Sequence record: MT968995.1
Direction: 5' to 3' (one strand)
Length of the DNA stretch: 64,000 nt
Origin: Escherichia phage vB_EcoM_WL-3
Made by a program: the position numbers and the translations under genes. Within the stretch, counting starts at the first letter, position 1. Each line of letters starts with the position of its first letter. This document shows, one piece after another, positions 20,959 through 63,891 of the stretch. Below the pieces are notes generated by a model, which saw nothing but the letters and a program-made list of their open reading frames with translations, was not told where the DNA came from and did not search any database.

Positions 20959-20961
20959 CAA

Positions 20962-20981
20962 TGGGGACCGAAAGGTCCCCA
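20962..20981. terminator. Terminator hairpin between gene 54 (+) and the minus-strand alt cluster
   Basis: TGGGGACC-GAAA-GGTCCCCA hairpin followed by tgtttttatt. Confidence 0.7.
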
Positions 20982-20986
20982 TGTTT

Positions 20987-21277
20987 TTATTTACGGAATG
21001 AAATAAAAGCAGCAACTGAAGCAACTAAACTGTCTTCAATATAAACTTCAATTTTTACCGGAGCTTCTGATTCAAATTTACCTGTTACTACACCCTGGAA
21101 AATGCTTTCAGTCTGTTCTGGCTTTGAAAAATTTTCAGAAGGAAAAATTCCGAACTTTTTATTTGTTCCAAAAATTTTGATAAATTCATCATAAACTGCT
21201 TCATTAAAAGCGTTATCAACAGGAATAACGCCTTCAACTACAAGTTCTTGACCTAAAAAGCGTAAAGAAGATTTCAT
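20987..21277 (-). CDS. Hypothetical protein (alt.-3-like position)
   Basis: 96-aa ORF directly downstream of an early promoter. Confidence 0.6.
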   Translation of the reverse strand: MKSSLRFLGQELVVEGVIPVDNAFNEAVYDEFIKIFGTNKKFGIFPSENFSKPEQTESIFQGVVTGKFESEAPVKIEVYIEDSLVASVAAFISFRK

Positions 21278-21308
21278 TTTGTGTTCCTCATGTTATGTCA
21301 GTAAGATT

Positions 21309-21338
21309 ATTATAACACAATACGAGGGACTTGTAAAC
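21309..21338 (-). promoter_or_regulatory. T4 early-type promoter (GTTTAC-N18-TATAAT)
   Basis: Minus-strand GTTTACAAGTCCCTCGTATTGTGTTATAAT; the same cassette recurs upstream of alc. Confidence 0.6.
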
Positions 21339-23395
21339 TACATCTTGAACTTTTTAGACATTCCGTTGATGTTAACCAAAGAAGCTAAGATTTGAGAAAC
21401 TTCGTTTTCCTCTTCTTTTGATTCTTCTACAAGGAATTGATTAAACCCAGCCATTGGACGAACTTCACCAGTTTCCATCAGATGATCGCCATCATATACC
21501 GATTCTTCTAATTGTTCAGAAGGAGGAACGATTGTACCTTCGATTAAATACTTGTTATAAGCAGTTTCTTTCATCATGTACGTGCTCACTTTATTAATCT
21601 TCAGCAAAATTCCACGTGGTAAAATAACTTCAGCTTCTGACGTAAATCCTGATAAATGACCCGGAACGATAACTTTGATTCGCTCAGCTCCTTTAATTAC
21701 CATACCCACGCTAGTTTCAGCATCTTCATTCGCATAAGCAGAATGACTGCCCATATGCATCAAATCTTCTGCGTCAATTGAACCTTCTCCTTCACCAGAA
21801 AATACTGCACTGGAATCATCTAGAGCCATATAGTTTTTACCATACTCACCGAAGATATTTGGTTTAAGCGATGTGGATACGAAGTTCTTAAAATAGAACA
21901 TTTTATTTTCAATATTATGACGTAAAGTTTTAAAGGTAACTTCTTGGCCACGGTAAAGCGTAGTTCCTGGAGGAAGAACTGATCCTTTGGCAAAAGCAGA
22001 ATCCATCGTCTCGATGTGTTTAATAGCTCGTTCCATATATTCTTCACGAGTAGAATCCGGTTTACCTAAAAGGAACGAGTTCATTTCAACATATGAATCT
22101 GCGCAATAATCTTCAATTACATCAGACTCAGCCCGAGTTAATCCTTTTGGGGGTACTTCAGTACTTGCATATTCATACGCTTGAGAAGCAGACTCATTAA
22201 TCAATTTATAAATGCCATTCATGACAAATTGAATAATAGCTACCTTTTCATCTGGCGTGGCTTTAGAACCTTTAACTAAATCATTGACAATTTTCTTAAT
22301 AACATCAAAGCTATTAGAAATATTAATGTCAGCAAGATCGCTTAAAATTTTATCAGTTTTATAATCAAAAAATTCTTTATTCTTTAAATATTCTTGAGAA
22401 CCTTGATGTGTTATATCGCTCTGCAGTCTGATAGACGGATCACGTAAACGTGCATGGGCCAATGCAATATGATTTCGGAAGCTTTTTAGTTCATAATCAC
22501 TAGATTTAAAACGAGAAGCACTCCTCATACCACCGATAGCTCCTTTGCCGAAGTTTGAACCAATCTGAATAACGCCAGAGTTCATTGGTCCTTCTGCTTT
22601 ATATACCGGAACTTTAGATTCAAACTCTTGATATTTCTTAGCAGCGAAACTATCGCCCTGAAGTGAAGCATCGACAGTAGAGTATTGAGCTTGTGCTGCT
22701 AATCGACGACTAATTTTAGTTTTCTGAATAACAGCTTGATCCGTGCGCTTATCATTTTCTAAAGCAATAGAAGCGGCAACAGCAACAGCTTTAGGAACAG
22801 CATTACCTGTTTTAACGTCTACATAAACATCACCAACCTTTGATTCAACTTTTGTGAATAACTCAGTTGAAATAGGAGGTACACCTGGAATGTCTTCTAA
22901 ATTGGCATTTTTACGGTAAACCATAATATATGCATACTTTTTATCGTAATCCCAGATTTCCTTTAAAAGAACATATCGACCTGCTCCTTTAGTACGTACT
23001 AAACGGTCAGCAATAACTTGAATTTGTCGAGCTGCGCCATTTGTTTTACTCTTTAGTACGCGGAACAGGCATGCGTCAATTTTATACTGTTTCATTGTTT
23101 GAAGAGCAGTATCAAAAACCGCATTAATAACACCAATTGGATTTCCACCCAAGTTTTTAAGTTTAACTAATGATAGTTTCTCATTGACACCTATCATTAC
23201 GATATGCATCATTTTATCGCCTGGCTTAACGTTTTTATTTGTATCACCGCCAGAGGTGTATGTGCAAAATCTAAATCCAGGAAGCACGCTTTCTTCACCG
23301 GCTTGAATAGCAAAAATTTGAGGTATTTTATGCTTAGGATTTAAGTTAACAACCGGCGCCGAAGCGCCGTCAAATAATTCTGTAATAAGTTCCAT
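21338..23395 (-). CDS. Alt-family ADP-ribosyltransferase, paralog A
   Basis: 685-aa ORF with MELITELFD N-terminus and C-terminal ART motifs (YRGQ Arg, FVSTSL, EAEVILPRG); paralogous to the adjacent ORF; which copy is the T4 alt ortholog is not resolved. Confidence 0.85.
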   Translation of the reverse strand: MELITELFDGASAPVVNLNPKHKIPQIFAIQAGEESVLPGFRFCTYTSGGDTNKNVKPGDKMMHIVMIGVNEKLSLVKLKNLGGNPIGVINAVFDTALQTMKQYKIDACLFRVLKSKTNGAARQIQVIADRLVRTKGAGRYVLLKEIWDYDKKYAYIMVYRKNANLEDIPGVPPISTELFTKVESKVGDVYVDVKTGNAVPKAVAVAASIALENDKRTDQAVIQKTKISRRLAAQAQYSTVDASLQGDSFAAKKYQEFESKVPVYKAEGPMNSGVIQIGSNFGKGAIGGMRSASRFKSSDYELKSFRNHIALAHARLRDPSIRLQSDITHQGSQEYLKNKEFFDYKTDKILSDLADINISNSFDVIKKIVNDLVKGSKATPDEKVAIIQFVMNGIYKLINESASQAYEYASTEVPPKGLTRAESDVIEDYCADSYVEMNSFLLGKPDSTREEYMERAIKHIETMDSAFAKGSVLPPGTTLYRGQEVTFKTLRHNIENKMFYFKNFVSTSLKPNIFGEYGKNYMALDDSSAVFSGEGEGSIDAEDLMHMGSHSAYANEDAETSVGMVIKGAERIKVIVPGHLSGFTSEAEVILPRGILLKINKVSTYMMKETAYNKYLIEGTIVPPSEQLEESVYDGDHLMETGEVRPMAGFNQFLVEESKEEENEVSQILASLVNINGMSKKFKM

Positions 23396-23398
23396 GAT

Positions 23399-25495
23399 TT
23401 ATCCTTGAACGAACTTGTAAGGCATGTTTGTAATATCTATGCAAGACGCAATAATTCCGAGAGATGATTCTGCTTTCTGTTTAACATTTGATGAAACAAA
23501 TGATGCAAAGTCAACTCTGTCTTCTATTTCAATATCACCTGTCATTGCAACTACTTCACCAGTTTCCATTAAATGGTCTCCATCATAAATTACTGATTCG
23601 GTGAGTTCTTCTGTAGTCATAACTTCAGATTGAATGAGTTTTGTATTATTAGATGTTGTTCCGTCATTATTAGAAGCATCAGTTATTTTATTAACTTTGA
23701 CCATCAATCCGCGCGGTAGAATAACTTCAGCTTCTGTTGCTATTCCGAGACTTCCTGGATATACAACATTAACTTTATGAGCTCCATCAATTGCCCATCC
23801 TATTTGAACTTTAACGTATTCAGGATTTTCTTTATACGCTCTTATTTCGTTTGGATTAATAGTTATTCCTTCTTCATTTTTATCAACTGTCAATTCATTA
23901 CGAGCTTCTGGTTCTAAAAGACCAATACCAGCATGTGTAATTCCAAAACGTCCAAAAATGATAGGAGTTAAAGAAGTAGATACAAAATTTCTGAAATAGA
24001 ACACTTTATTTTTAACTAGTGCTTCGTATATAGGAGCAGTCATACTTTGAGCACGATAAACTGTAATGCCTTCTGGTATACGGTCACCATTTTCAAAAGC
24101 TGAATCTAAGTTATTTATAGCAGATTCAATTTCTTTTTCACTCATTACATCATATCGTTCTGGATTGTAACGACCCAAAAGAAGATTATTGATGTCAGTA
24201 TATCCTGAACCACAATACTCTCTAATGCCGCGCTTTTGTGATGGAGTATATTTAGAACCATCACGGGCAATAGTAATATCAATCATTGGACCTGCACCAA
24301 TTCCAGAAAAACTATAAATCATTCGTTTGAGGAATTTAGTTTTTGCTGCGTTCCAGGAATTTTTAGTTATTTCTTCCCAGACTTCATCTGGCTGTCCTTT
24401 ACGGGTTTTATTATGTTTATCAAGCCAAGTATCTTTATATTCTTCAAAGAATTTATTAACAGCTGCTGCGTATTTCTCTAAACATTTTATTGAAGTAGTT
24501 GGTTCATTTTTAATCGCATTAAGAATTACATCTTTAATTTTTTCAGAAACTTCATTAACCTCACTTTTTGAAAAGAATTTATAGTCATAGTGAAGTTCAT
24601 CTGCGGTTCCTTCGGCAATGATTTTTGCTGCCTTAGTTTTAGAAGCTAATGAATTAATTCCAAGCTTCATTTCTTCTGCTTCGGGAATTAAAGGAGCTGT
24701 AGCAGGTTTATTGAAATTAGCTGCAGTAGATTCATACTTCTGGAATAATTCGCTTTCAAATCTAGAAGATTCTAATGATTGACTTTGCGCAATTGCTCTA
24801 CGGGAAATTTTAACTTTAACAATAACAGCTTGGTCAGAACGTTTATCATTTTCTTGTGCAATAGATGCTGCAATTGCCTCATTTTTAGTTACTTGAGCTC
24901 CAGTATCTTTATTGATATAAACATCGCCGACTTTCGATTCAACTTTAGTAAAGAGCTCGGTACTAATTTCCGGAACTCCTGGAATGTCTTCTAGTGATAC
25001 ATTTTTGCGATGTATAAGAATATATGCATACTTTTTATCGTAATCCCAGAGTTCCTTAAGAAGGACGTATCTGCCACCTGAACGACTACGAATAAGTCTA
25101 TCAGCAATAACTTGAATTTGTCGAGCTTGACCAGCAGTTTTAGACTTAAGAATACGGAGCATACAGGCATCAATTTTATACTGACGCATCGTCTGCATTG
25201 CAACAGTAAAAACTGAATTGATATAATTAATTGGGCTTGGACCGAGACCTTTTAATTTAGCAATTGAACCTTTAGCAGTTAATGTAAAAGGAACAATATG
25301 CATCATTTTATCGCCCATTTTTAAATCGCGATTAGTATCACCTCCAGATGTATAGGTACATAAACGAAAGCCTGGTTGTTCAATTGCGTCATCGACATGA
25401 ACTGAAAAAATTTGTGGTATTTTCTTCTTTGGATTTAAGTTTGTAATCGGAAGAGTAGTATCTTCGTCAAATAATTCTGTAATGAGTTCCATCAT
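23399..25495 (-). CDS. alt: Alt-family ADP-ribosyltransferase, paralog B
   Basis: 698-aa ORF (697 aa from the second Met) with the same N-terminal and catalytic motifs (YRAQ, FVSTSL, EAEVILPRG); late promoter and SD immediately upstream; symbol assigned by position next to gene 30, which is uncertain. Confidence 0.85.
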   Translation of the reverse strand: MMELITELFDEDTTLPITNLNPKKKIPQIFSVHVDDAIEQPGFRLCTYTSGGDTNRDLKMGDKMMHIVPFTLTAKGSIAKLKGLGPSPINYINSVFTVAMQTMRQYKIDACMLRILKSKTAGQARQIQVIADRLIRSRSGGRYVLLKELWDYDKKYAYILIHRKNVSLEDIPGVPEISTELFTKVESKVGDVYINKDTGAQVTKNEAIAASIAQENDKRSDQAVIVKVKISRRAIAQSQSLESSRFESELFQKYESTAANFNKPATAPLIPEAEEMKLGINSLASKTKAAKIIAEGTADELHYDYKFFSKSEVNEVSEKIKDVILNAIKNEPTTSIKCLEKYAAAVNKFFEEYKDTWLDKHNKTRKGQPDEVWEEITKNSWNAAKTKFLKRMIYSFSGIGAGPMIDITIARDGSKYTPSQKRGIREYCGSGYTDINNLLLGRYNPERYDVMSEKEIESAINNLDSAFENGDRIPEGITVYRAQSMTAPIYEALVKNKVFYFRNFVSTSLTPIIFGRFGITHAGIGLLEPEARNELTVDKNEEGITINPNEIRAYKENPEYVKVQIGWAIDGAHKVNVVYPGSLGIATEAEVILPRGLMVKVNKITDASNNDGTTSNNTKLIQSEVMTTEELTESVIYDGDHLMETGEVVAMTGDIEIEDRVDFASFVSSNVKQKAESSLGIIASCIDITNMPYKFVQG

Positions 25496-29474: not shown

Positions 29475-29852
29475 TTAAATATCAAATTCGTTAAGAACTA
29501 CATCAAAGATCGCTTCAAGATGCTCAGGTTTAGCTCTGTTACTCAGAATATGACGAATCCAAGTTTTAACCAGAAGCTTACGATTGACGCCATTCCAGCA
29601 AGGATGAGTCCCTAAATCACGTTGACGGAAATCATCATCTAATGCGATTTTAAAAGAAGAACCTTCTTTCGTGATTGAAACCGTGATGCCATTTTCAAAT
29701 CGCATATAAACGTAGTTAGGAGTCATATACTGTTCAATTTCGCATACTGATCCATTTTGATGTTTCCAAAGACAGATAGTATCAATAGAACCTGCAATAC
29801 CGTTAGAAACATATTTACGTTCAAAGTTGATGTAGTTCATTTTATTCTCCAA
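29475..29852 (-). CDS. Hypothetical protein
   Basis: 125-aa ORF. Confidence 0.6.
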   Translation of the reverse strand: MENKMNYINFERKYVSNGIAGSIDTICLWKHQNGSVCEIEQYMTPNYVYMRFENGITVSITKEGSSFKIALDDDFRQRDLGTHPCWNGVNRKLLVKTWIRHILSNRAKPEHLEAIFDVVLNEFDI

Positions 29853-29907
29853 GATGTTTAATTGCGGTACAGGTATATAATATCATATCCTGTACCAAAG
29901 TAAACAA

Positions 29908-30240
29908 TTATTTTACTACTTTCCAGTGCTGCATGTCAAGTTTACCAACTTTTTTCATCTTCTCAATTAAGCGTTCTGCACGTTGGCGAGCTGTAACATA
30001 ATACCATTCACCTAATTCATTTTGTTCAATTTTTCCAACGATTACTGTATTCAATTCATAAATCCAACCAGTAAAGAAATTATGAACTTGAATTGTAAAG
30101 GTGAAATCTGTTCCCATACCTTCTGTTGTTTCTACTTCAATAATATCACCTTCAACTGCCATTAAGAACCACATAGTTTCGTTATATTCACCATTGAAAC
30201 ATTTAGCTTTAACCGCAGCGTTCAGATTAATCGTTTTCAT
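29908..30240 (-). CDS. Hypothetical protein
   Basis: 110-aa ORF downstream of an early promoter. Confidence 0.6.
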   Translation of the reverse strand: MKTINLNAAVKAKCFNGEYNETMWFLMAVEGDIIEVETTEGMGTDFTFTIQVHNFFTGWIYELNTVIVGKIEQNELGEWYYVTARQRAERLIEKMKKVGKLDMQHWKVVK

Positions 30241-30267
30241 TTTATTCTCCTTTGTTTGTGTAAGATA

Positions 30268-30297
30268 ATACTATCACAAAGGAACCATACTGTAAAC
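30268..30297 (-). promoter_or_regulatory. T4 early-type promoter (GTTTAC-N18-TAGTAT)
   Basis: Minus-strand GTTTACAGTATGGTTCCTTTGTGATAGTAT upstream of the 29908..30240 ORF. Confidence 0.5.
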
Positions 30298-33725: not shown

Positions 33726-33755
33726 TTCAATTTCCTCGTTTGTTTTGGTAGAGCT

Positions 33756-33785
33756 ATAATATCACAACTCTACCGTAAAGTAAAC
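33756..33785 (-). promoter_or_regulatory. T4 early-type promoter (GTTTAC-N18-TATTAT)
   Basis: Minus-strand GTTTACTTTACGGTAGAGTTGTGATATTAT upstream of the 33198..33725 ORF. Confidence 0.5.
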
Positions 33786-36204: not shown

Positions 36205-36554
36205 TTAGAAAGGTCCTGGATGTCTTCTGCGAACTTGTTGAAGGAGTTGTTGATTTGTTTTTCAACCAATCCTGGCTTACGAGCCACCACATCCGCCTTC
36301 TTTGCATCTTTGCGCAGTTTTTCATTTTCACGCTCAATAGCAGCAATCGCCTCACGATTTTTATTATTCATCGCATCAATATAATTATACTGAATTCGCA
36401 AATTATTTAATGCTAAGGCGTTTTCATTGGCCGTTTTTGTAATTTCTACAACAGACGTTTCTAATCTTTCAATTTTATTTTTTAAAATTAAAGAAGTTCC
36501 GCCTAATGCAATTACAATTAATAGCAAACCTGCTGTCGTATTACTTAATTGCAT
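36201..36554 (-). CDS. Inner-membrane i-spanin-like protein (Rz analogue)
   Basis: 117-aa ORF with an N-terminal transmembrane segment followed by a charged coiled-coil-like region. Confidence 0.65.
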   Translation of the reverse strand: MQLSNTTAGLLLIVIALGGTSLILKNKIERLETSVVEITKTANENALALNNLRIQYNYIDAMNNKNREAIAAIERENEKLRKDAKKADVVARKPGLVEKQINNSFNKFAEDIQDLSK

Positions 36555-37051
36555 AAAGTTTTAATAACCTCTATAATATCGTCTTGAGAAAGACCGTTAA
36601 TTAAAATATGATGTTCAGCCGGAGATTTAGAAATTTTAAAGCATGCCTCAACATCTTCTGCCATATCCGATGCGCTACGATTTGGATTACTAATTCCAAG
36701 ACGATGTTTTCCCGTTAAAGGATTAACGATGATATAGCATTTACAGTTGTTAATATGAACATTAGGTTGAGTCTGATTAATGAACACATCGCAATCATAT
36801 TTCGCAAGCTGATTTTCTAAAAAGACTTTCATCTCCTCAACCGCATCAGGAAGCATATCACGGGCTTGCTCAAGACGACGATTTCGATATTCTTTAATGG
36901 TCGTTTTCCGCTTGACTTGCTTAGCTAAATCTTTCTTAAGATCGGTGATATATCCAACTCGACGATTTCCTTTAAATACAGAAATCCCATCTGTAGTATC
37001 ACCGTATGCTTCAACGACCATTTCAGTAGTAATAAGCTGCAAATCCATCAT
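36545..37051 (-). CDS. alc: Alc, inhibitor of host transcription
   Basis: 168-aa ORF (167 aa from the second Met), length and position match T4 Alc. Confidence 0.85.
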   Translation of the reverse strand: MMDLQLITTEMVVEAYGDTTDGISVFKGNRRVGYITDLKKDLAKQVKRKTTIKEYRNRRLEQARDMLPDAVEEMKVFLENQLAKYDCDVFINQTQPNVHINNCKCYIIVNPLTGKHRLGISNPNRSASDMAEDVEACFKISKSPAEHHILINGLSQDDIIEVIKTLCN

Positions 37052-37079
37052 AAAGTCCTCATGTTATGTCAGTAAGACT

Positions 37080-37109
37080 ACTATAACACAACACGAGGGA
37101 CTTGTAAAC
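37080..37109 (-). promoter_or_regulatory. T4 early-type promoter (GTTTAC-N18-TATAGT) for alc
   Basis: Minus-strand GTTTACAAGTCCCTCGTGTTGTGTTATAGT; about 50 bp near-identical to the cassette at 21278-21338. Confidence 0.6.
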
Positions 37110-46251: not shown

Positions 46252-46494
46252 TCAAACAGACTTTTTCACAATTTTCCAATCAGCTTTAAACTGATCGACG
46301 TCAGAATGATAAATCCAGAACCCTGCGCTTTCTCCATCCTCATAAAGAGGGCATCCATCGCATTCATCTTCCCATCCCATGCCACGTAAAAGATGTTCAG
46401 CTTTTTCAACAAGTTCAGAATCTTTACCAATGATATTAAAATACCATTTACCTCTAACTTCTGAATCTTTGATGCTTTGGCGTTGTAATCTCAT
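46252..46494 (-). CDS. Hypothetical protein (frd.3-like)
   Basis: 80-aa ORF downstream of an early promoter. Confidence 0.6.
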   Translation of the reverse strand: MRLQRQSIKDSEVRGKWYFNIIGKDSELVEKAEHLLRGMGWEDECDGCPLYEDGESAGFWIYHSDVDQFKADWKIVKKSV

Positions 46495-46519
46495 TTTATT
46501 CTCCTTAGTTGATAGGGTA

Positions 46520-46549
46520 ATAGTATCACACTACTACCCTACTGTAAAC
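46520..46549 (-). promoter_or_regulatory. T4 early-type promoter (GTTTAC-N18-TACTAT)
   Basis: Minus-strand GTTTACAGTAGGGTAGTAGTGTGATACTAT. Confidence 0.5.
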
Positions 46550-46973: not shown

Positions 46974-47225
46974 TTATTGTTCAATCAGTCCCATATAAAA
47001 TTCTGCATCTTCAGAATCCATGCCATCACAATATTCATTAGCCATAAAGCGGGTGAGGTCTTCAAGAGGACCTTCAATGACAATAGAAAAATTGCAATAA
47101 TTGGGATCATCATGAATACTTGTGATACTAAGTTCAGGATAACGATTACGAATAATTTCTTCAATATATTCAAAATCAACGATGTCAATATCAACTTTAG
47201 CCATATTATTTTCCTCTTTAATCAT
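46974..47225 (-). CDS. Hypothetical acidic protein
   Basis: 83-aa ORF downstream of an early promoter. Confidence 0.6.
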
Positions 47226-47247
47226 CAGCAGTATTGCCGATAGTTGT

Positions 47248-47277
47248 ATAGTACTATAGAAGAACAGAGGTGTAAAC
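47248..47277 (-). promoter_or_regulatory. T4 early-type promoter (GTTTAC-N18-TACTAT)
   Basis: Minus-strand GTTTACACCTCTGTTCTTCTATAGTACTAT; shares the GATAGTTGTATAGTAC context with the motA promoter. Confidence 0.5.
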
Positions 47278-47308
47278 AGTTTTGTGAAAAAATTTTTGAA
47301 ATAAAAAA

Positions 47309-47327
47309 GGGGACCTCTAGGGTCCCC
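47309..47327 (-). terminator. Intrinsic terminator downstream of gene 32
   Basis: GGGGACC-CTAGA-GGTCCCC hairpin followed on the minus strand by TTTTTTATTT. Confidence 0.75.
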
Positions 47328-47349
47328 AATTAATTAGTAATATAATCTA

Positions 47350-50623: not shown

Positions 50624-53600
50624 ATGGCCGAGATTAAAAGAAAGTTCAGAGCAGAAGACGGTCTGGACGCAGGTGGCGATAAAATAATCAACGTAGCTTT
50701 AGCTGATCGTACCGTAGGAACTGACGGTGTTAACGTTGATTACTTAATTCAAGAAAACACAGTTCAACAATATGATCCAACTCGTGGATATTTAAAAGAT
50801 TTTGTAATCATTTATAATAATCGTTTTTGGGCAGCAACGGATAATATTCCAAAACCTGCTGGAAGTTTTAATAGAATTCGTTGGAAAGCATTACGTACTG
50901 ATGCCGTATATACAACCGTATCATCTGGACCATATCAATTAAAATCCGGAGAAGCAATTTCAGTAGATACATCAGTTGGTAATGACATTGAGTTTAATTT
51001 ACCACCTTCTCCGCTTGATGGAGAAACCGTAATAATTCAAGATATTGGTGGAAAACCTGGTATAAATCAGGTTAAAATAAATTCTTCAAATCAGAGTATT
51101 GTTAATTTTAGAGGTGAACAAGTACGTTCAGTTCTAATGACTCATCCAAAGTCACAGATGATATTCATTTTTAATAATCGTTTGTGGCAAATGTATGCTG
51201 CTGATTATAGCAGAGAAGCTGCGATTGTTACTCCATCAACTGCATATCAAGCACAATCTAATGATTTTATCGTGCGTAGATTTACTTCCGCTGCGCCGAT
51301 TAATATTAAACTTCCGAGATTTGCTAATCATGGCGATATTATTAATTCGTGCGTAGATTTACTTCCGCTGCGCCGATTAATATTAAACTTCCGAGATTTG
51401 CTAATCATGGCGATATTATTAATTTCGTTGATTTAGATAAATTAAATCCACTTTATCATACAATTGTCACAACATATGATGAAACAACTTCAGTACAAGA
51501 AGTTGGAACTCATTCTATTGAAGGCCGTACATCAATTGACGGTTTCTTGATGTTTGATGATAATGAAAAATTATGGAGACTGTTTGACGGGGATAGTAAA
51601 GCACGTTTACGCATTATAACAACTAATTCTAATATTCGTCCAAATGAAGAAGTTATGGTATTTGGCGCGAATAACGGAACAGCCCAAACAATTGAACTTC
51701 AACTTCCAACCGATATTTCCATTGGTGATACTGTTAAAATTTCCATGAATTACATGAGAAAAGGACAAACAGTTAAAATCAAAGCTGCCGGTGAAGATAA
51801 AATTGCTTCTTCAGTTCAATTGCTGCAATTCCCAAAACGCTCAGAATATCCACCACCTGAAGCTGAATGGGTGACTGTCCAAGAATTAGTTTTCAATGGT
51901 GAAACTAATTATGTTCCGGTTTTACAACTTGCTTATATAGAAGATTCTGACGGAAAATACTGGGTTGTACAACAAAACGTTCCAACGGTTGAAAGAGTCG
52001 ATTCTTTAAATAATTCTACTAGAGCAAGATTAGGCGTAATAGCTTTAGCTACACAAGCTCAAGCTAACGTCGATTTAGAAAATTCTCCGCAAAAAGAATT
52101 AGCAATTACACCAGAAACATTAGCTAACCGTACTGCTACAGAAACTCGTAGAGGTATCGCAAGAATAGCAACTACTGCTCAAGTGAATCAGAACACCACA
52201 TTCTCTTTTGCTGATGACCTTATCATCACTCCTAAAAAGCTGAATGAAAGAACTGCTACAGAAACTCGTAGAGGTGTAGCTGAAATTGCTACGCAGCAGG
52301 AAACTAATACAGGTACTGATGATACTACAATCATCACTCCTAAAAAGCTTCAAGCTCGACAAGGTTCTGAATCATTATCTGGTATTGTAACCTTTGTATC
52401 TACTGCGGGAGCTACTCCAGCTTCTAGTCGCGAATTAAATGGTACAAATGTTTATAATAAAAACACTAATAATTTAGTTGTTTCGCCTAAAGCTTTGGAT
52501 CAGTATAAAGCTACTCCAACACAACAAGGTGCAGTAATTTTAGCAGTTGAAAGTGAAGTAATTGCTGGACAAAGCCAAGAAGGATGGGCAAATGCGGTTG
52601 TAACGCCAGAAACGTTACATAAAAAGACATCAACTGATGGAAGAATTGGTTTAATTGAGATTGCTACGCAAAGTGAAGTTAATACAGGAACTGATTATAC
52701 TCGCGCAGTCACTCCTAAAACTTTAAATGACCGTAAAGCAACTGAAAGTTTAACTGGTATAGCTGAAATTGCTACGCAAGTTGAATTCGACGCAGGCGTC
52801 GACGATACTCGTATCTCTACACCATTAAAAATTAAAACCAGATTTAATAGTACTGATCGTACTTCTGTTGTTGCTCTGTCTGGATTAGTTGAATCAGGAA
52901 CTCTCTGGGACCATTATACCCTTAATATTCTTGAAGCAAATGAGACACAACGTGGTACACTTCGTGTAGCTACACAAGTTGAAGCTGCTGCAGGAACATT
53001 GGATAATGTTCTAATAACTCCTAAAAAGCTTTTAGGTACTAAATCTACTGAAGCGCAGGAAGGTGTTATTAAAGTTGCAACTCGGTCTGAAACTGTAGCT
53101 GGAACGTCAGCAAATACTGCTGTATCTCCAAAAAATTTAAAATGGATTGTGCAGAGTGAACCTACTTGGGCAGCTACTACTGCGATAAGAGGTTTTGTTA
53201 AAACCTCATCCGGTTCAATTACATTCGTTGGTAATGATACAGCTGGTTCTACGCAGGACTTAGAACTATATGAGAAAAATAACTATGCAGTATCACCATA
53301 TGAATTAAACCGCGTATTAGCAAATTATTTGCCGTTAAAAGCAAAAGCTGTAGATAGTAATTTATTAGATGGTTTAGATTCACTCCAGTTCATTCGTAGG
53401 GATATTGCGCAGACGGTTAATGGTTCACTAACCTTAACACAACAAACGAATCTGAGTGCCCCTCTTGTATCATCTAGTACTGCTACGTTTGGTGGATCAG
53501 TTTCGGCAAATAGTACATTAACTATTTCTAATACTGGAACGGCAACTCGTCTTATTTTTGAAAAAGGGCCTCAAACTGGGACGAACCCAGCTCAAACGAT

Positions 53601-62979: not shown

Positions 62980-63615
62980 TCACAGTTCAGATGCTACGGT
63001 GATTACTGCTTCAATGTTTTCTGCCGAGCGTTTAATGTCAAGATACACATTACCGTTTTTAGCGATTTTACATGACATTCCGATATCAGTAAATTTCTGA
63101 ATATGATGTTCCATCATTTTGTATCCAAAAATTCGCATATTTCCATTGTTGTTAATTTCAAAATTACGAATTCCGTGAGTGCGTTTTTCTAAAATAGCGA
63201 GATAGTTACTACGATAAGTTTCAACCTTTTTAAGAACAAATCCATTTTCATCTAAAAGTTTTAACATGAAGTCTTTATCTTCTTCCATATCAGAAGTAAT
63301 CTCGCGAGCTTTACGTGTTGCTCGTTTTTTCAGCAGTTCAGGAGCGTTTTCCTGCGCGTATAAAGTTGCCGCATTTGAAATAATATCCTGAGCTTCACCT
63401 GTAATGATTAATCCATCACCAGATTTCTCCACCAGGCCTTTTTTAATCAATACCCCAATATTACTATTAACTACTGCATTACCTAAATCTGGATGCACCT
63501 CACGAACTTCTGCGGCTGTAATGAAATCTTTCTTAGCAATGGTAATTAAAATCGCAGCAGTTTTTTCATTCAGAACATCGTTAGAAGCTTTGATGATGTA
63601 AGTTACTTTAGACAT
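62980..63615 (-). CDS. motA: Middle-transcription activator MotA
   Basis: 211-aa ORF beginning MSKVTYIIKASNDVLNEKTAAILITIAKKDF, recognised as MotA. Confidence 0.93.
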   Translation of the reverse strand: MSKVTYIIKASNDVLNEKTAAILITIAKKDFITAAEVREVHPDLGNAVVNSNIGVLIKKGLVEKSGDGLIITGEAQDIISNAATLYAQENAPELLKKRATRKAREITSDMEEDKDFMLKLLDENGFVLKKVETYRSNYLAILEKRTHGIRNFEINNNGNMRIFGYKMMEHHIQKFTDIGMSCKIAKNGNVYLDIKRSAENIEAVITVASEL

Positions 63616-63656
63616 TTTCTAATCTCCGTAATTCTGTATCAGTAGTTGATAGTTGT

Positions 63657-63686
63657 ATAGTACCACAGTATGCTTTGGTTGTAAAC
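63657..63686 (-). promoter_or_regulatory. T4 early-type promoter (GTTTAC-N18-TACTAT) for motA
   Basis: Minus-strand GTTTACAACCAAAGCATACTGTGGTACTAT about 40 bp upstream of motA. Confidence 0.55.
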
Positions 63687-63716
63687 CGTTTTGTGAAAAA
63701 TTTTTGAAATAAAAAA

Positions 63717-63736
63717 GGGAGAGCCTCGGCTCTCCC
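63717..63736 (-). terminator. Intrinsic terminator (8-bp GC stem plus U-run) downstream of the small hydrophobic ORF and gene 52
   Basis: gggagagc-ctcg-gctctccc followed on the minus strand by TTTTTTATTT. Confidence 0.7.
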
Positions 63737-63741
63737 TAAAA

Positions 63742-63891
63742 TTACTGCATGACTGTGATAACTGTCATGATAACACGTTGAATTCCGAACGCAAGAAGAC
63801 CTCCTGCTACGGCTGGAACAACGCCTAAACCCGCCAGTAAAATGCTACCAGATACTAATGCAGCGCTTGTAATACCAATGAATGGACTCAT
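63742..63891 (-). CDS. Small hydrophobic protein (49 aa, putative membrane peptide)
   Basis: Hand-translated ORF below the track cutoff: MSPFIGITSAALVSGSILLAGLGVVPAVAGGLLAFGIQRVIMTVITVMQ; its ATG overlaps the gene 52 TGA (ATGA). Confidence 0.5.
   Translation of the reverse strand: MSPFIGITSAALVSGSILLAGLGVVPAVAGGLLAFGIQRVIMTVITVMQ

Follow-up and report, generated by a model that had tools for sequence, protein, structure and literature searches.

An early promoter cassette shared by alc and alt.-3 in Tequatrovirus phages, with a predicted hairpin over the Shine-Dalgarno sequence

Two genes of Escherichia phage vB_EcoM_WL-3 (MT968995.1), alt.-3 and alc, are preceded by almost the same regulatory DNA, consisting of an early promoter, a leader and a Shine-Dalgarno (SD) sequence. 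In the 64,000-nucleotide stretch of this genome analysed here (the window), and in related phage genomes, we find that this repeat is real, significant and old, and structure prediction together with covariation supports placing the early promoter of alc inside a hairpin that would mask the SD. Our overall reading, which we hold with a probability of roughly 0.65, is that both are cassettes of the PeSL (promoter-early stem-loop) type, each with its own promoter inside an SD-masking hairpin, and that the alc cassette was copied over the alt.-3 promoter in the ancestor of Tequatrovirus. The repeat belongs to an already described class of phage promoter/stem-loop cassettes and is to that extent a largely ordinary finding; it would provide a clean, datable case of a promoter, leader and ribosome-site unit copied between conserved genes in T4-type genomes.

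Results

The region around the repeat is 97–98.6% identical to many Tequatrovirus (T4-like) phages, and its gene order is that of T4 (genes 29/48/54, alt, 30, 31, cd, pseT, alc, rnlA, nrd, td, frd, 32, tail-fibre genes, motA). Both cassettes and the genes behind them lie on the minus strand. The first copy precedes a 96-aa gene (20987..21277) annotated as alt.-3 in PP01 and T4, and the second precedes alc (36548..37051), which encodes a 167-aa host transcription inhibitor and whose translation is 100% identical to annotated Alc. According to time-resolved omics tables for T4, alt.-3 and alc are early at both the RNA and the protein level, alt is late, and the rnlA protein accumulates late (PMC9697503 supplements). 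The alt.-3 gene is non-essential, and T4 mutants with a C-terminal extension of Alt.-3 escape CmdTAC (PMC11618068). A 9-bp G+C-rich hairpin with T-runs on both strands, which looks like a bidirectional terminator, is located between convergent alt.-3 and gene 54 (20961-20982); a stop-codon extension of the kind found in the escape mutants would read towards it. The window contains two full-length alt paralogues, as annotated in phage PP01, with repeat blocks at 22684-23122 and 24778-25216 (70-72% identical, 2094 nt apart), while T4 has one alt and the remnants alt.-1 and alt.-2, so that the gene directly upstream of the alt.-3 cassette differs between phages. A further repeat, at 51261-51414, is formed by two 77-nt units in tandem and in perfect register, 95% identical and of a length not divisible by 3; by T4 synteny it falls in the region of the long tail fibre gene 34.

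The 53-mer GTTTACAAGTCCCTCGTATTGTGTTATAATAATCTTACTGACATAACATGAGG at 21286-21338 has a second match at 37057-37109 with exactly three mismatches, no third match at ≤3 mismatches in the window, and no match in 100 shuffles. A repeat search of the window gave a full block of 54 nt (21285-21338 and 37056-37109), identical at 51/54 positions (94%); at each of the three differing positions, alc has G where alt.-3 has A. The copies are separated by 15,771 nt and are in direct orientation. The initial annotation had described a near-identical block with three mismatches, extending over the -35 and -10 elements, the leader and the SD of two sites about 16 kb apart; this description holds, and the promoter is of the sigma-70 early type. 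The alc copy had been assigned to 37052-37109, where the block is indeed present, with its 3' end drawn slightly generously (the block covers 37056-37109, and the ATG is at 37051).

Repeat search, promoter scan and folding together delimit the cassettes at 21283..21338 (alt.-3) and 37053..37109 (alc). At alt.-3, the upstream alt paralogue ends in a TAG stop (21340-21338) whose G also opens the -35 element GTTTAC (21338-21333), and a TGn motif precedes the -10 element TATAAT (21314-21309), giving an 11/12 match to the sigma-70 hexamers (TTTACA-17-TATAAT); the predicted start is near 21302, and the SD, GAGG, is at 21289-21286. At alc, GTTTAC (37109-37104) lies 3 nt after the rnlA stop TAA (37115-37113), TG precedes the -10 element TATAGT (37085-37080; 10/12 match, TTTACA-17-TATAGT), the predicted start is near 37073, and GAGG is at 37060-37057. 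Both copies thus have an extended -10 (TGn) and an SD 5-8 nt ahead of the ATG. When 20.5-38.5 kb is scanned by consensus for sigma-70-like sites, their promoters come second and third. The DNA ahead of each cassette is the 3' end of a coding gene, A/T-rich at alc (aaaaattataaaaaatttatccc) and less so at alt.-3. Both loci also contain a mini-ORF starting from the ATG in CATGAGG (21291-21274 with 5 codons at alt.-3, 37062-37048 with 4 codons at alc), whose TGA stop overlaps the ATG of the gene (ATGA) despite the differing post-SD sequence at the two loci. This overlap is also seen at alc of EcS1 and is absent at alc of IME08 and of Karamvirus; given this inconsistency between genera, it may be coincidence.

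One way to account for the shared 54 nt would be that they are merely an extended consensus of T4 early promoters and leaders. T4 early promoters do hold common information outside the -35, TGn and -10 elements (PMC2988021), and unrelated promoters in the window agree at up to 36/54 positions. We aligned the 12 GTTTAC-type sites in the window, 10 of which are minus-strand early promoters, on their -35 elements and compared 54 nt: the alt.-3/alc pair agrees at 51/54 positions, far outside a distribution with a mean of 23 and a next best pair at 36/54. Only two copies occur per genome, and the orthologous promoters differ in other genera. Since other early promoter pairs reach at most 36/54, the shared block is not general promoter consensus, and this comparison of all early promoters in the window rules out the extended-consensus reading, which we regard as having almost no chance of being correct. 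The earlier proposal that the identity goes beyond consensus and marks a duplicated cassette is upheld, with copying as the best explanation of the shared block.

A second pair of related promoters had also been pointed out, and the underlying 16-mer GATAGTTGTATAGTAC is an exact match between 47239-47254 and 63648-63663 (0.05 chance matches expected at ≤2 mismatches); its start had been given as 47238, one base off. The 16-mer is part of a resemblance over ~100 nt that takes in a terminator T-run, UP region, -35, -10 and start region. The first member, at frd.3 (47203..47336, minus strand), consists of the gene 32 terminator hairpin (47327-47309) with its T-run, a UP region and a promoter with GTTTAC at 47277-47272 and TACTAT at 47253-47248, the frd.3 ATG being at 47203. 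The second, at motA (63614..63744, minus strand), likewise has a terminator hairpin with T-run and a UP region, followed by GTTTAC at 63686-63681, TACTAT at 63662-63657 and the motA leader. The pair shares a 44/45 block (T-run, UP region, -35) and a 16/16 block (-10, start region); their spacers are not alike, and their terminator stems, though self-complementary in each copy, have different sequences. The similarity exceeds consensus and fits the PeSL subclass with a stem-loop upstream of the -35, as that subclass is described in the PeSL papers discussed below.

The alt.-3/alc cassette is an imperfect palindrome, in which AAGTCC-C-TCGTGTTGTGTT, a segment that starts just past the -35 and takes in the -10, can pair with GACATAACATGAGGACTT, the leader and SD. 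In the folded structures, the hairpin covers 37103-37053 at alc, with 22 pairs and one bulged C, and 21330-21283 at alt.-3. The alc RNA folds at -27.3 kcal/mol (z -5.3, with 0/200 shuffles as good; -24.4 kcal/mol and z -5.27 for a 60-nt version), the alt.-3 RNA of the window at -15.8 kcal/mol (z -2.4; -15.2 kcal/mol and z -2.9 for 60 nt), and the two T4 cassettes at -23.0 and -24.7 kcal/mol. The -10 hexamer straddles an internal loop and a short apical helix, and the predicted start, 7 nt past the -10, opens the 3' arm. Partition-function folding of four Tequatrovirus cassettes predicts that the SD is unpaired with a probability of ≤0.008 in read-through RNA and of 0.13-0.62 in promoter-initiated RNA, the lower value matching the alt.-3 transcript of the window, whose SD is predicted to be just 13% open. 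In the lineage of the window, two of the three G-to-A differences at alt.-3 break the stem, one by creating an A.C mismatch and the other by the loss of a G-C pair in the apical helix, at a cost of ~9 kcal/mol, which suggests weaker constraint at alt.-3 than at alc. Among Tequatrovirus substitutions at paired positions (six in the main stem, one in the apical helix), 5/7 keep pairing, no better than transitions predict.

Hairpins straddling the -10 are also present at four other minus-strand early promoters of the window (46490-46549, z -3.6; 33726-33785, z -3.8; 30238-30297, z -2.1; 29846-29905, z -4.6). In each, the spacer supplies the 5' arm and positions around +1 to +10 supply the 3' arm; at the promoter at 30297, the hairpin also pairs the SD (CCTTTG/CAAAGG). 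Folding revealed no hairpin of this kind at the promoters at 63686, 61221, 50578 and 47277. In other genera -10-straddling hairpins are common, for example at L068 13453, L071 13387 and L069 8655.

At the rnlA-alc junction, other lineages share the architecture seen in the window, with the 5' arm directly after the -35, the -10 in the loop and the SD in the 3' arm. Besides Tequatrovirus, six lineages have such a hairpin at alc, with differing arm sequences: Dhakavirus (TCTCCTCAT(G) / (C)ATGAGGAGA; IME08, VR5 and the genus-unassigned fDHCT2, which has the IME08 sequence), Kagamiyamavirus EcS1 (ATCCTCATTTTGTTG / CAACAAAATGAGGAT, 15 perfect pairs), Kanagawavirus IME523 (AATCCCATTTTGTT / AACAAAATGGGGATT), Marfavirus Marfa (CCTCGTTTGTT / AACAAACGAGG, with the same arms in unclassified Clarke_MM3), Karamvirus fGh-Ecl04 (TCTCCATTTGGTT / AACCAAATGGAGA) and Klebsiella phage Mexia (TCCTCATCAG / CTGATGAGGA). 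For these six other hairpins, the predicted probability of an unpaired SD is ≤0.002 in read-through RNA against 0.28-0.78 in the promoter's own RNA, save for IME523 (0.17 against 0.55).

RNAalifold applied to six alc sequences returned 13 pairs, of which 5 have changes on both sides. When 12 alc upstream regions are aligned with MAFFT, the 3' arm of Dhakavirus is placed wrongly, so formal covariation rests on the six sequences or on an SD-anchored table of minimum-free-energy (MFE) pairs for 8 sequences from seven lineages. In this table, the first three SD bases are paired in 8/8 sequences and the fourth in 7/8, and most stem columns contain at least two pair types. A covariance-model search mostly recovered other early promoters by sequence, and its alignment is no clean test of the alc helix. 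Complementarity at alc is kept while the arm sequence changes, which favours a structure formed by the nucleic acid over a binding site for a protein. No SD-masking hairpin exists at alc of Mosigvirus, Gaprivervirus VR25, Acinetobacter phage Ac42 or Aeromonas phage phiAS4, which makes the structure dispensable. At alc of VR25 (L096 1-80), the -35-like GTGTAC lies in the loop of a G+C-rich hairpin, AAGGGG-TGTACAA-GCCCCTT, so that this locus carries a promoter/stem-loop cassette of another positional subclass.

The alt.-3 gene has another type of promoter in seven phages from six genera (EcS1, IME08, VR5, SF, Marfa, VR25 and Melville), consisting of GTTTACAA, a palindrome of 4-6 bp wholly within the spacer, and then TACTAT or TATAGT. 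The palindromes are CCACA-AGGA-TGTGG, CCACAT-GG-ATGTGG, ACACAT-GG-ATGTGT, GCAC-AAGGAA-GTGC and ATCC-ATGGAA-GGAT; by chance, 1.2% of random spacers would contain a stem of ≥5 bp. RNAalifold on a MAFFT alignment of eight spacer-palindrome promoters (the seven at alt.-3 plus Mosigvirus alc) found no consensus structure, since the alignment does not bring the short stems into register; the evidence for the spacer palindromes is therefore weaker, consisting of palindromes in the individual sequences. An alc-type cassette stands at alt.-3 in Tequatrovirus only, and there alt.-3 retains its native flanks, the Alt C-terminus KFKM-TAG upstream and AACA..ATGAAATC downstream. Because six genera have the other promoter type at alt.-3 and the alc type is found there only in Tequatrovirus, copying most likely went from alc to alt.-3, with the ancestor of Tequatrovirus replacing its alt.-3 promoter by the alc cassette.

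Further exchanges between the two loci can be traced in other genera. In VR5 (Dhakavirus), a 32-nt leader, ACCTTACACAAACATGAGGAGAACATTATGAA, is identical at alc and alt.-3 from after the -10 to two bases past the ATG (L070 3374-3433 and 19943-20003); the alc leader of IME08 (L067 3713-3774) differs. On sequence grounds, the shared VR5 leader shows a second, independent exchange between alc and alt.-3. The alc promoter of Mosigvirus (SF, L065 20113-20176; mobillu, L066, same place) has the spacer palindrome ACACC-AAGGAA-GGTGT and a leader resembling the alt.-3 type. Mosigvirus alc and alt.-3 have a within-genome identity of 0.77; between genomes, the background is 0.68 ± 0.04 and reaches 0.78 at most, so that reverse copying, in which Mosigvirus alc would have received an alt.-3-type cassette, is only suggestive.

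The duplication had been called recent, which its distribution contradicts. In T4 (NC_000866), alt.-3 and alc are preceded by the same pair of cassettes, with 1 mismatch between copies. A 351-nt rnlA/alc query matched 646 phage records at 1144 places; 147 distant records and one fragment had one place each, and the remaining 996 places, in 498 Tequatrovirus records, correspond to two copies each. Cassettes from IMG/VR and metagenomes yield one consensus 54-mer for both loci, with several genomes 54/54 identical between copies and private substitutions numbering 0-3 per copy. No variant is common to both copies of one genome in six complete pairs (window, T4, L018/L041, L045/L064, L077/L083, L078/L081) or in L082/L086, and thus there is no sign of ongoing homogenisation; L052/L056 are two contigs presumed to come from one genome. 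The IMG/VR and metagenome cassettes derive from an exact 15-mer scan of IMG/VR, in which 62 loci contained 11 real cassettes and chance matches otherwise, and a metagenome scan with fixed ends and 36 free positions, in which 10 of 17 loci were real, too few for a population-level test of concerted evolution. With flanking DNA 95-99% identical, 0-3 differences per copy are no fewer than predicted. The pattern fits a single event that preceded the radiation of the genus, after which the copies drifted independently.

It had further been proposed that the repeats serve as substrates for deletion or inversion. As the copies are direct repeats, an exchange between them would delete or duplicate 15.8 kb, and inversion is excluded. 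The interval contains genes 30, 31, cd, pseT and others, of which genes 30 and 31 are essential. Chimeric queries at ≥80% coverage found neither the deletion junction (rnlA end, cassette, alt.-3) nor the duplication or circle junction (alt end, cassette, alc) in ~499 genomes, so the suggested role as a deletion substrate finds no counterpart among these records. A length of ~54 bp is reportedly, from work by Singer and colleagues in 1982, about the minimum homology for efficient T4 recombination, which would favour a recent duplication that is still an active substrate in this phage. Recombination between PeSLs, with mini-circles, is documented in RB49/phi1 (PMC2839356). Against such a recent and active duplication stand the presence of the pair in T4 and all sampled Tequatrovirus genomes, the direct orientation, the lack of a recombinant junction in the ~499 records and the two essential genes in the interval, and we consider it very improbable. 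The repeat is of little consequence for genome stability, being a direct repeat around essential genes for which no rearranged genome was found.

Discussion

Our model for the cassettes combines a regulatory proposal with a history. Each cassette comprises an upstream stop codon, a strong sigma-70 early promoter, a predicted leader of ~13 nt and the SD of the next gene. RNA reading through from upstream (from rnlA into alc, and from the late gene alt into alt.-3) would fold the hairpin and bury the SD, and the hairpin may also attenuate incoming upstream transcription. RNA from the cassette's own promoter would start at the 3' arm and lack the 5' arm, thus leaving the SD free, so that alc and alt.-3 would be translated essentially only from their own immediate-early transcripts. 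The T4 expression classes, with alt.-3 and alc early, alt late and the rnlA protein late, agree with such early-only translation, and the proposed function of the hairpin draws on folding and covariation. As to the history, a single ectopic gene-conversion patch of ≤54 nt in the Tequatrovirus ancestor probably overwrote the original alt.-3 promoter with the alc cassette. The ends of the patch fall where both promoter types already agreed, GTTTACAA and ACATGAGGA, and the copies would then have drifted independently, by 0-3 substitutions each.

The stem-loop could instead serve mainly to attenuate or terminate polymerase arriving from upstream, with the SD pairing incidental, a role that conflicts neither with the copying history nor with SD masking. 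PMC2839356 reports this function for PeSL stem-loops of RB49/phi1, one of which, placed before lacZ, cut expression as much as rrnB T1, and hairpins straddling the -10 without touching the SD exist at 46549, 33785 and 29905 (z -3.6 to -4.6) and in other genera. A canonical terminator scan calls neither cassette, however, and detects no terminator-like site in the rnlA-alc or alt-alt.-3 interval; the alt.-3 copy is followed by AACACAAAA rather than by a U-run. An intrinsic terminator as the main role is set aside for these reasons, namely the missing T-run at alt.-3 and the outcome of the scan at both sites. Moreover, the alc 3' arm covers the SD in 8/8 sequences from seven lineages despite differing loops and arms, which a pure terminator would not need. 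We judge attenuation as the principal function unlikely, while seeing in it the strongest competitor to SD masking.

Two other proposals fare worse. The identity of the copies might be selected because one sequence-specific factor, protein or RNA, binds both spacers or leaders and co-regulates the genes, in keeping with the early RNA and early protein of both genes in T4 (PMC9697503) and with a consensus that is identical for both copies across the genus. Other genera, however, have two different cassettes at the two genes, alc conserves complementarity rather than sequence, and the differences per copy are no fewer than flanking identity predicts, all of which makes a common factor improbable. 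The 22-bp helix might also be an RNase III site that splits the upstream message from alc or alt.-3, as its length of about two helical turns in the T4-type alc cassette would permit. The homologous alc helices of other genera have just 9-15 bp, and a helix of 9-15 bp is too short for RNase III; we have set this possibility aside and give it even less weight than a shared binding factor. SD masking combined with copying from alc thus remains our preferred reading.

The cassettes have close counterparts in the literature. Arbiol et al. 2010 (PMC2839356) and Comeau et al. 2014 (PMC4122927) describe the PeSL of T4-type phages as combining the stop codon of the preceding gene with an AT-rich stretch, sigma-70 boxes (-35 and -10), a stem-loop, and an SD with ATG; the stem-loop, for which five positional subclasses are distinguished, is commonest between the -35 and -10 or overlapping the -10. 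PeSL recombination is documented to reshape genomes and yield mini-circles in RB49/phi1, and the stem-loop can attenuate upstream transcription (PMC2839356). By their sequence features, both of our cassettes fit the PeSL class. They are intergenic and begin at or near the upstream stop (the alt TAG overlaps the -35, and the rnlA TAA lies 3 nt before it), they have sigma-70-like boxes at 17-nt spacing with TG before the -10, a stable stem-loop encloses the -10 and the SD and ATG are at the 3' end, and repeated copies appear to recombine, as in the Tequatrovirus alt.-3 replacement and the VR5 leader. The alc type would be a PeSL with a stem-loop overlapping the -10, and the alt.-3 type of other genera one with the stem-loop between the boxes.

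Several features differ from that description. The upstream side is coding DNA here, with no clearly AT-rich spacer; the stems are A/U- and G.U-rich, whereas those of PeSLs are poly-G/poly-C; between the copies lie 15.8 kb of conserved genes, some of them essential, where PeSLs enclose a dispensable ORFan within a hyperplastic region; what remains of the exchange is a promoter replaced by a promoter, not an indel; and the SD lies inside the 3' arm, of which the available text of the PeSL papers makes no mention. Within the available text of PMC4122927, the figure listing PST/T4 PeSLs aside, neither alc nor rnlA occurs, and "alt" appears in unrelated words only. Our literature search, which did not extend to the 2003 T4 genome review and older promoter compilations, found no paper on the alt.-3/alc pair or the alc hairpin. 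The cassettes extend the PeSL idea from the gain and loss of accessory ORFs to the replacement of regulatory regions, and the expression timing of alt.-3 is useful to know given that extended Alt.-3 variants let T4 escape CmdTAC (PMC11618068).

As promoters, the two sites resemble the T4 early promoters (Pe), with a GTTTAC -35, TGn, a TAnnnT -10 at 17-18 nt and early genes downstream; ordinary Pe, however, share at most about two thirds of the 54 positions. The nearest parallel for the hairpin is found in T4 e, soc, 49 and I-TevI, which have established SD-masking hairpins with an embedded promoter (PMC3014915, a review in whose text the word alc is absent). There, as here, the SD is in a helix whose 5' strand lies upstream of the proximal promoter, so that the long RNA is predicted to be untranslatable and the promoter-proximal RNA translatable. 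In those genes, however, the embedded promoter is late (or middle) and the hairpin blocks early expression of late genes, whereas here it is immediate-early and of the sigma-70 type, which in our model reverses the predicted effect and would confine translation to the early period. Tentatively, and at somewhat less than even odds, we regard the alc cassette as a conserved promoter-coupled translation gate and the mirror image of the T4 gene e hairpin, silent on later read-through RNA, kept by compensatory evolution in seven enterobacterial T4-like lineages and moved as a unit to alt.-3, with further exchanges in VR5 and perhaps Mosigvirus. If so, PeSL-type cassettes would rewire the regulation of conserved genes, going beyond the shuffling of ORFans.
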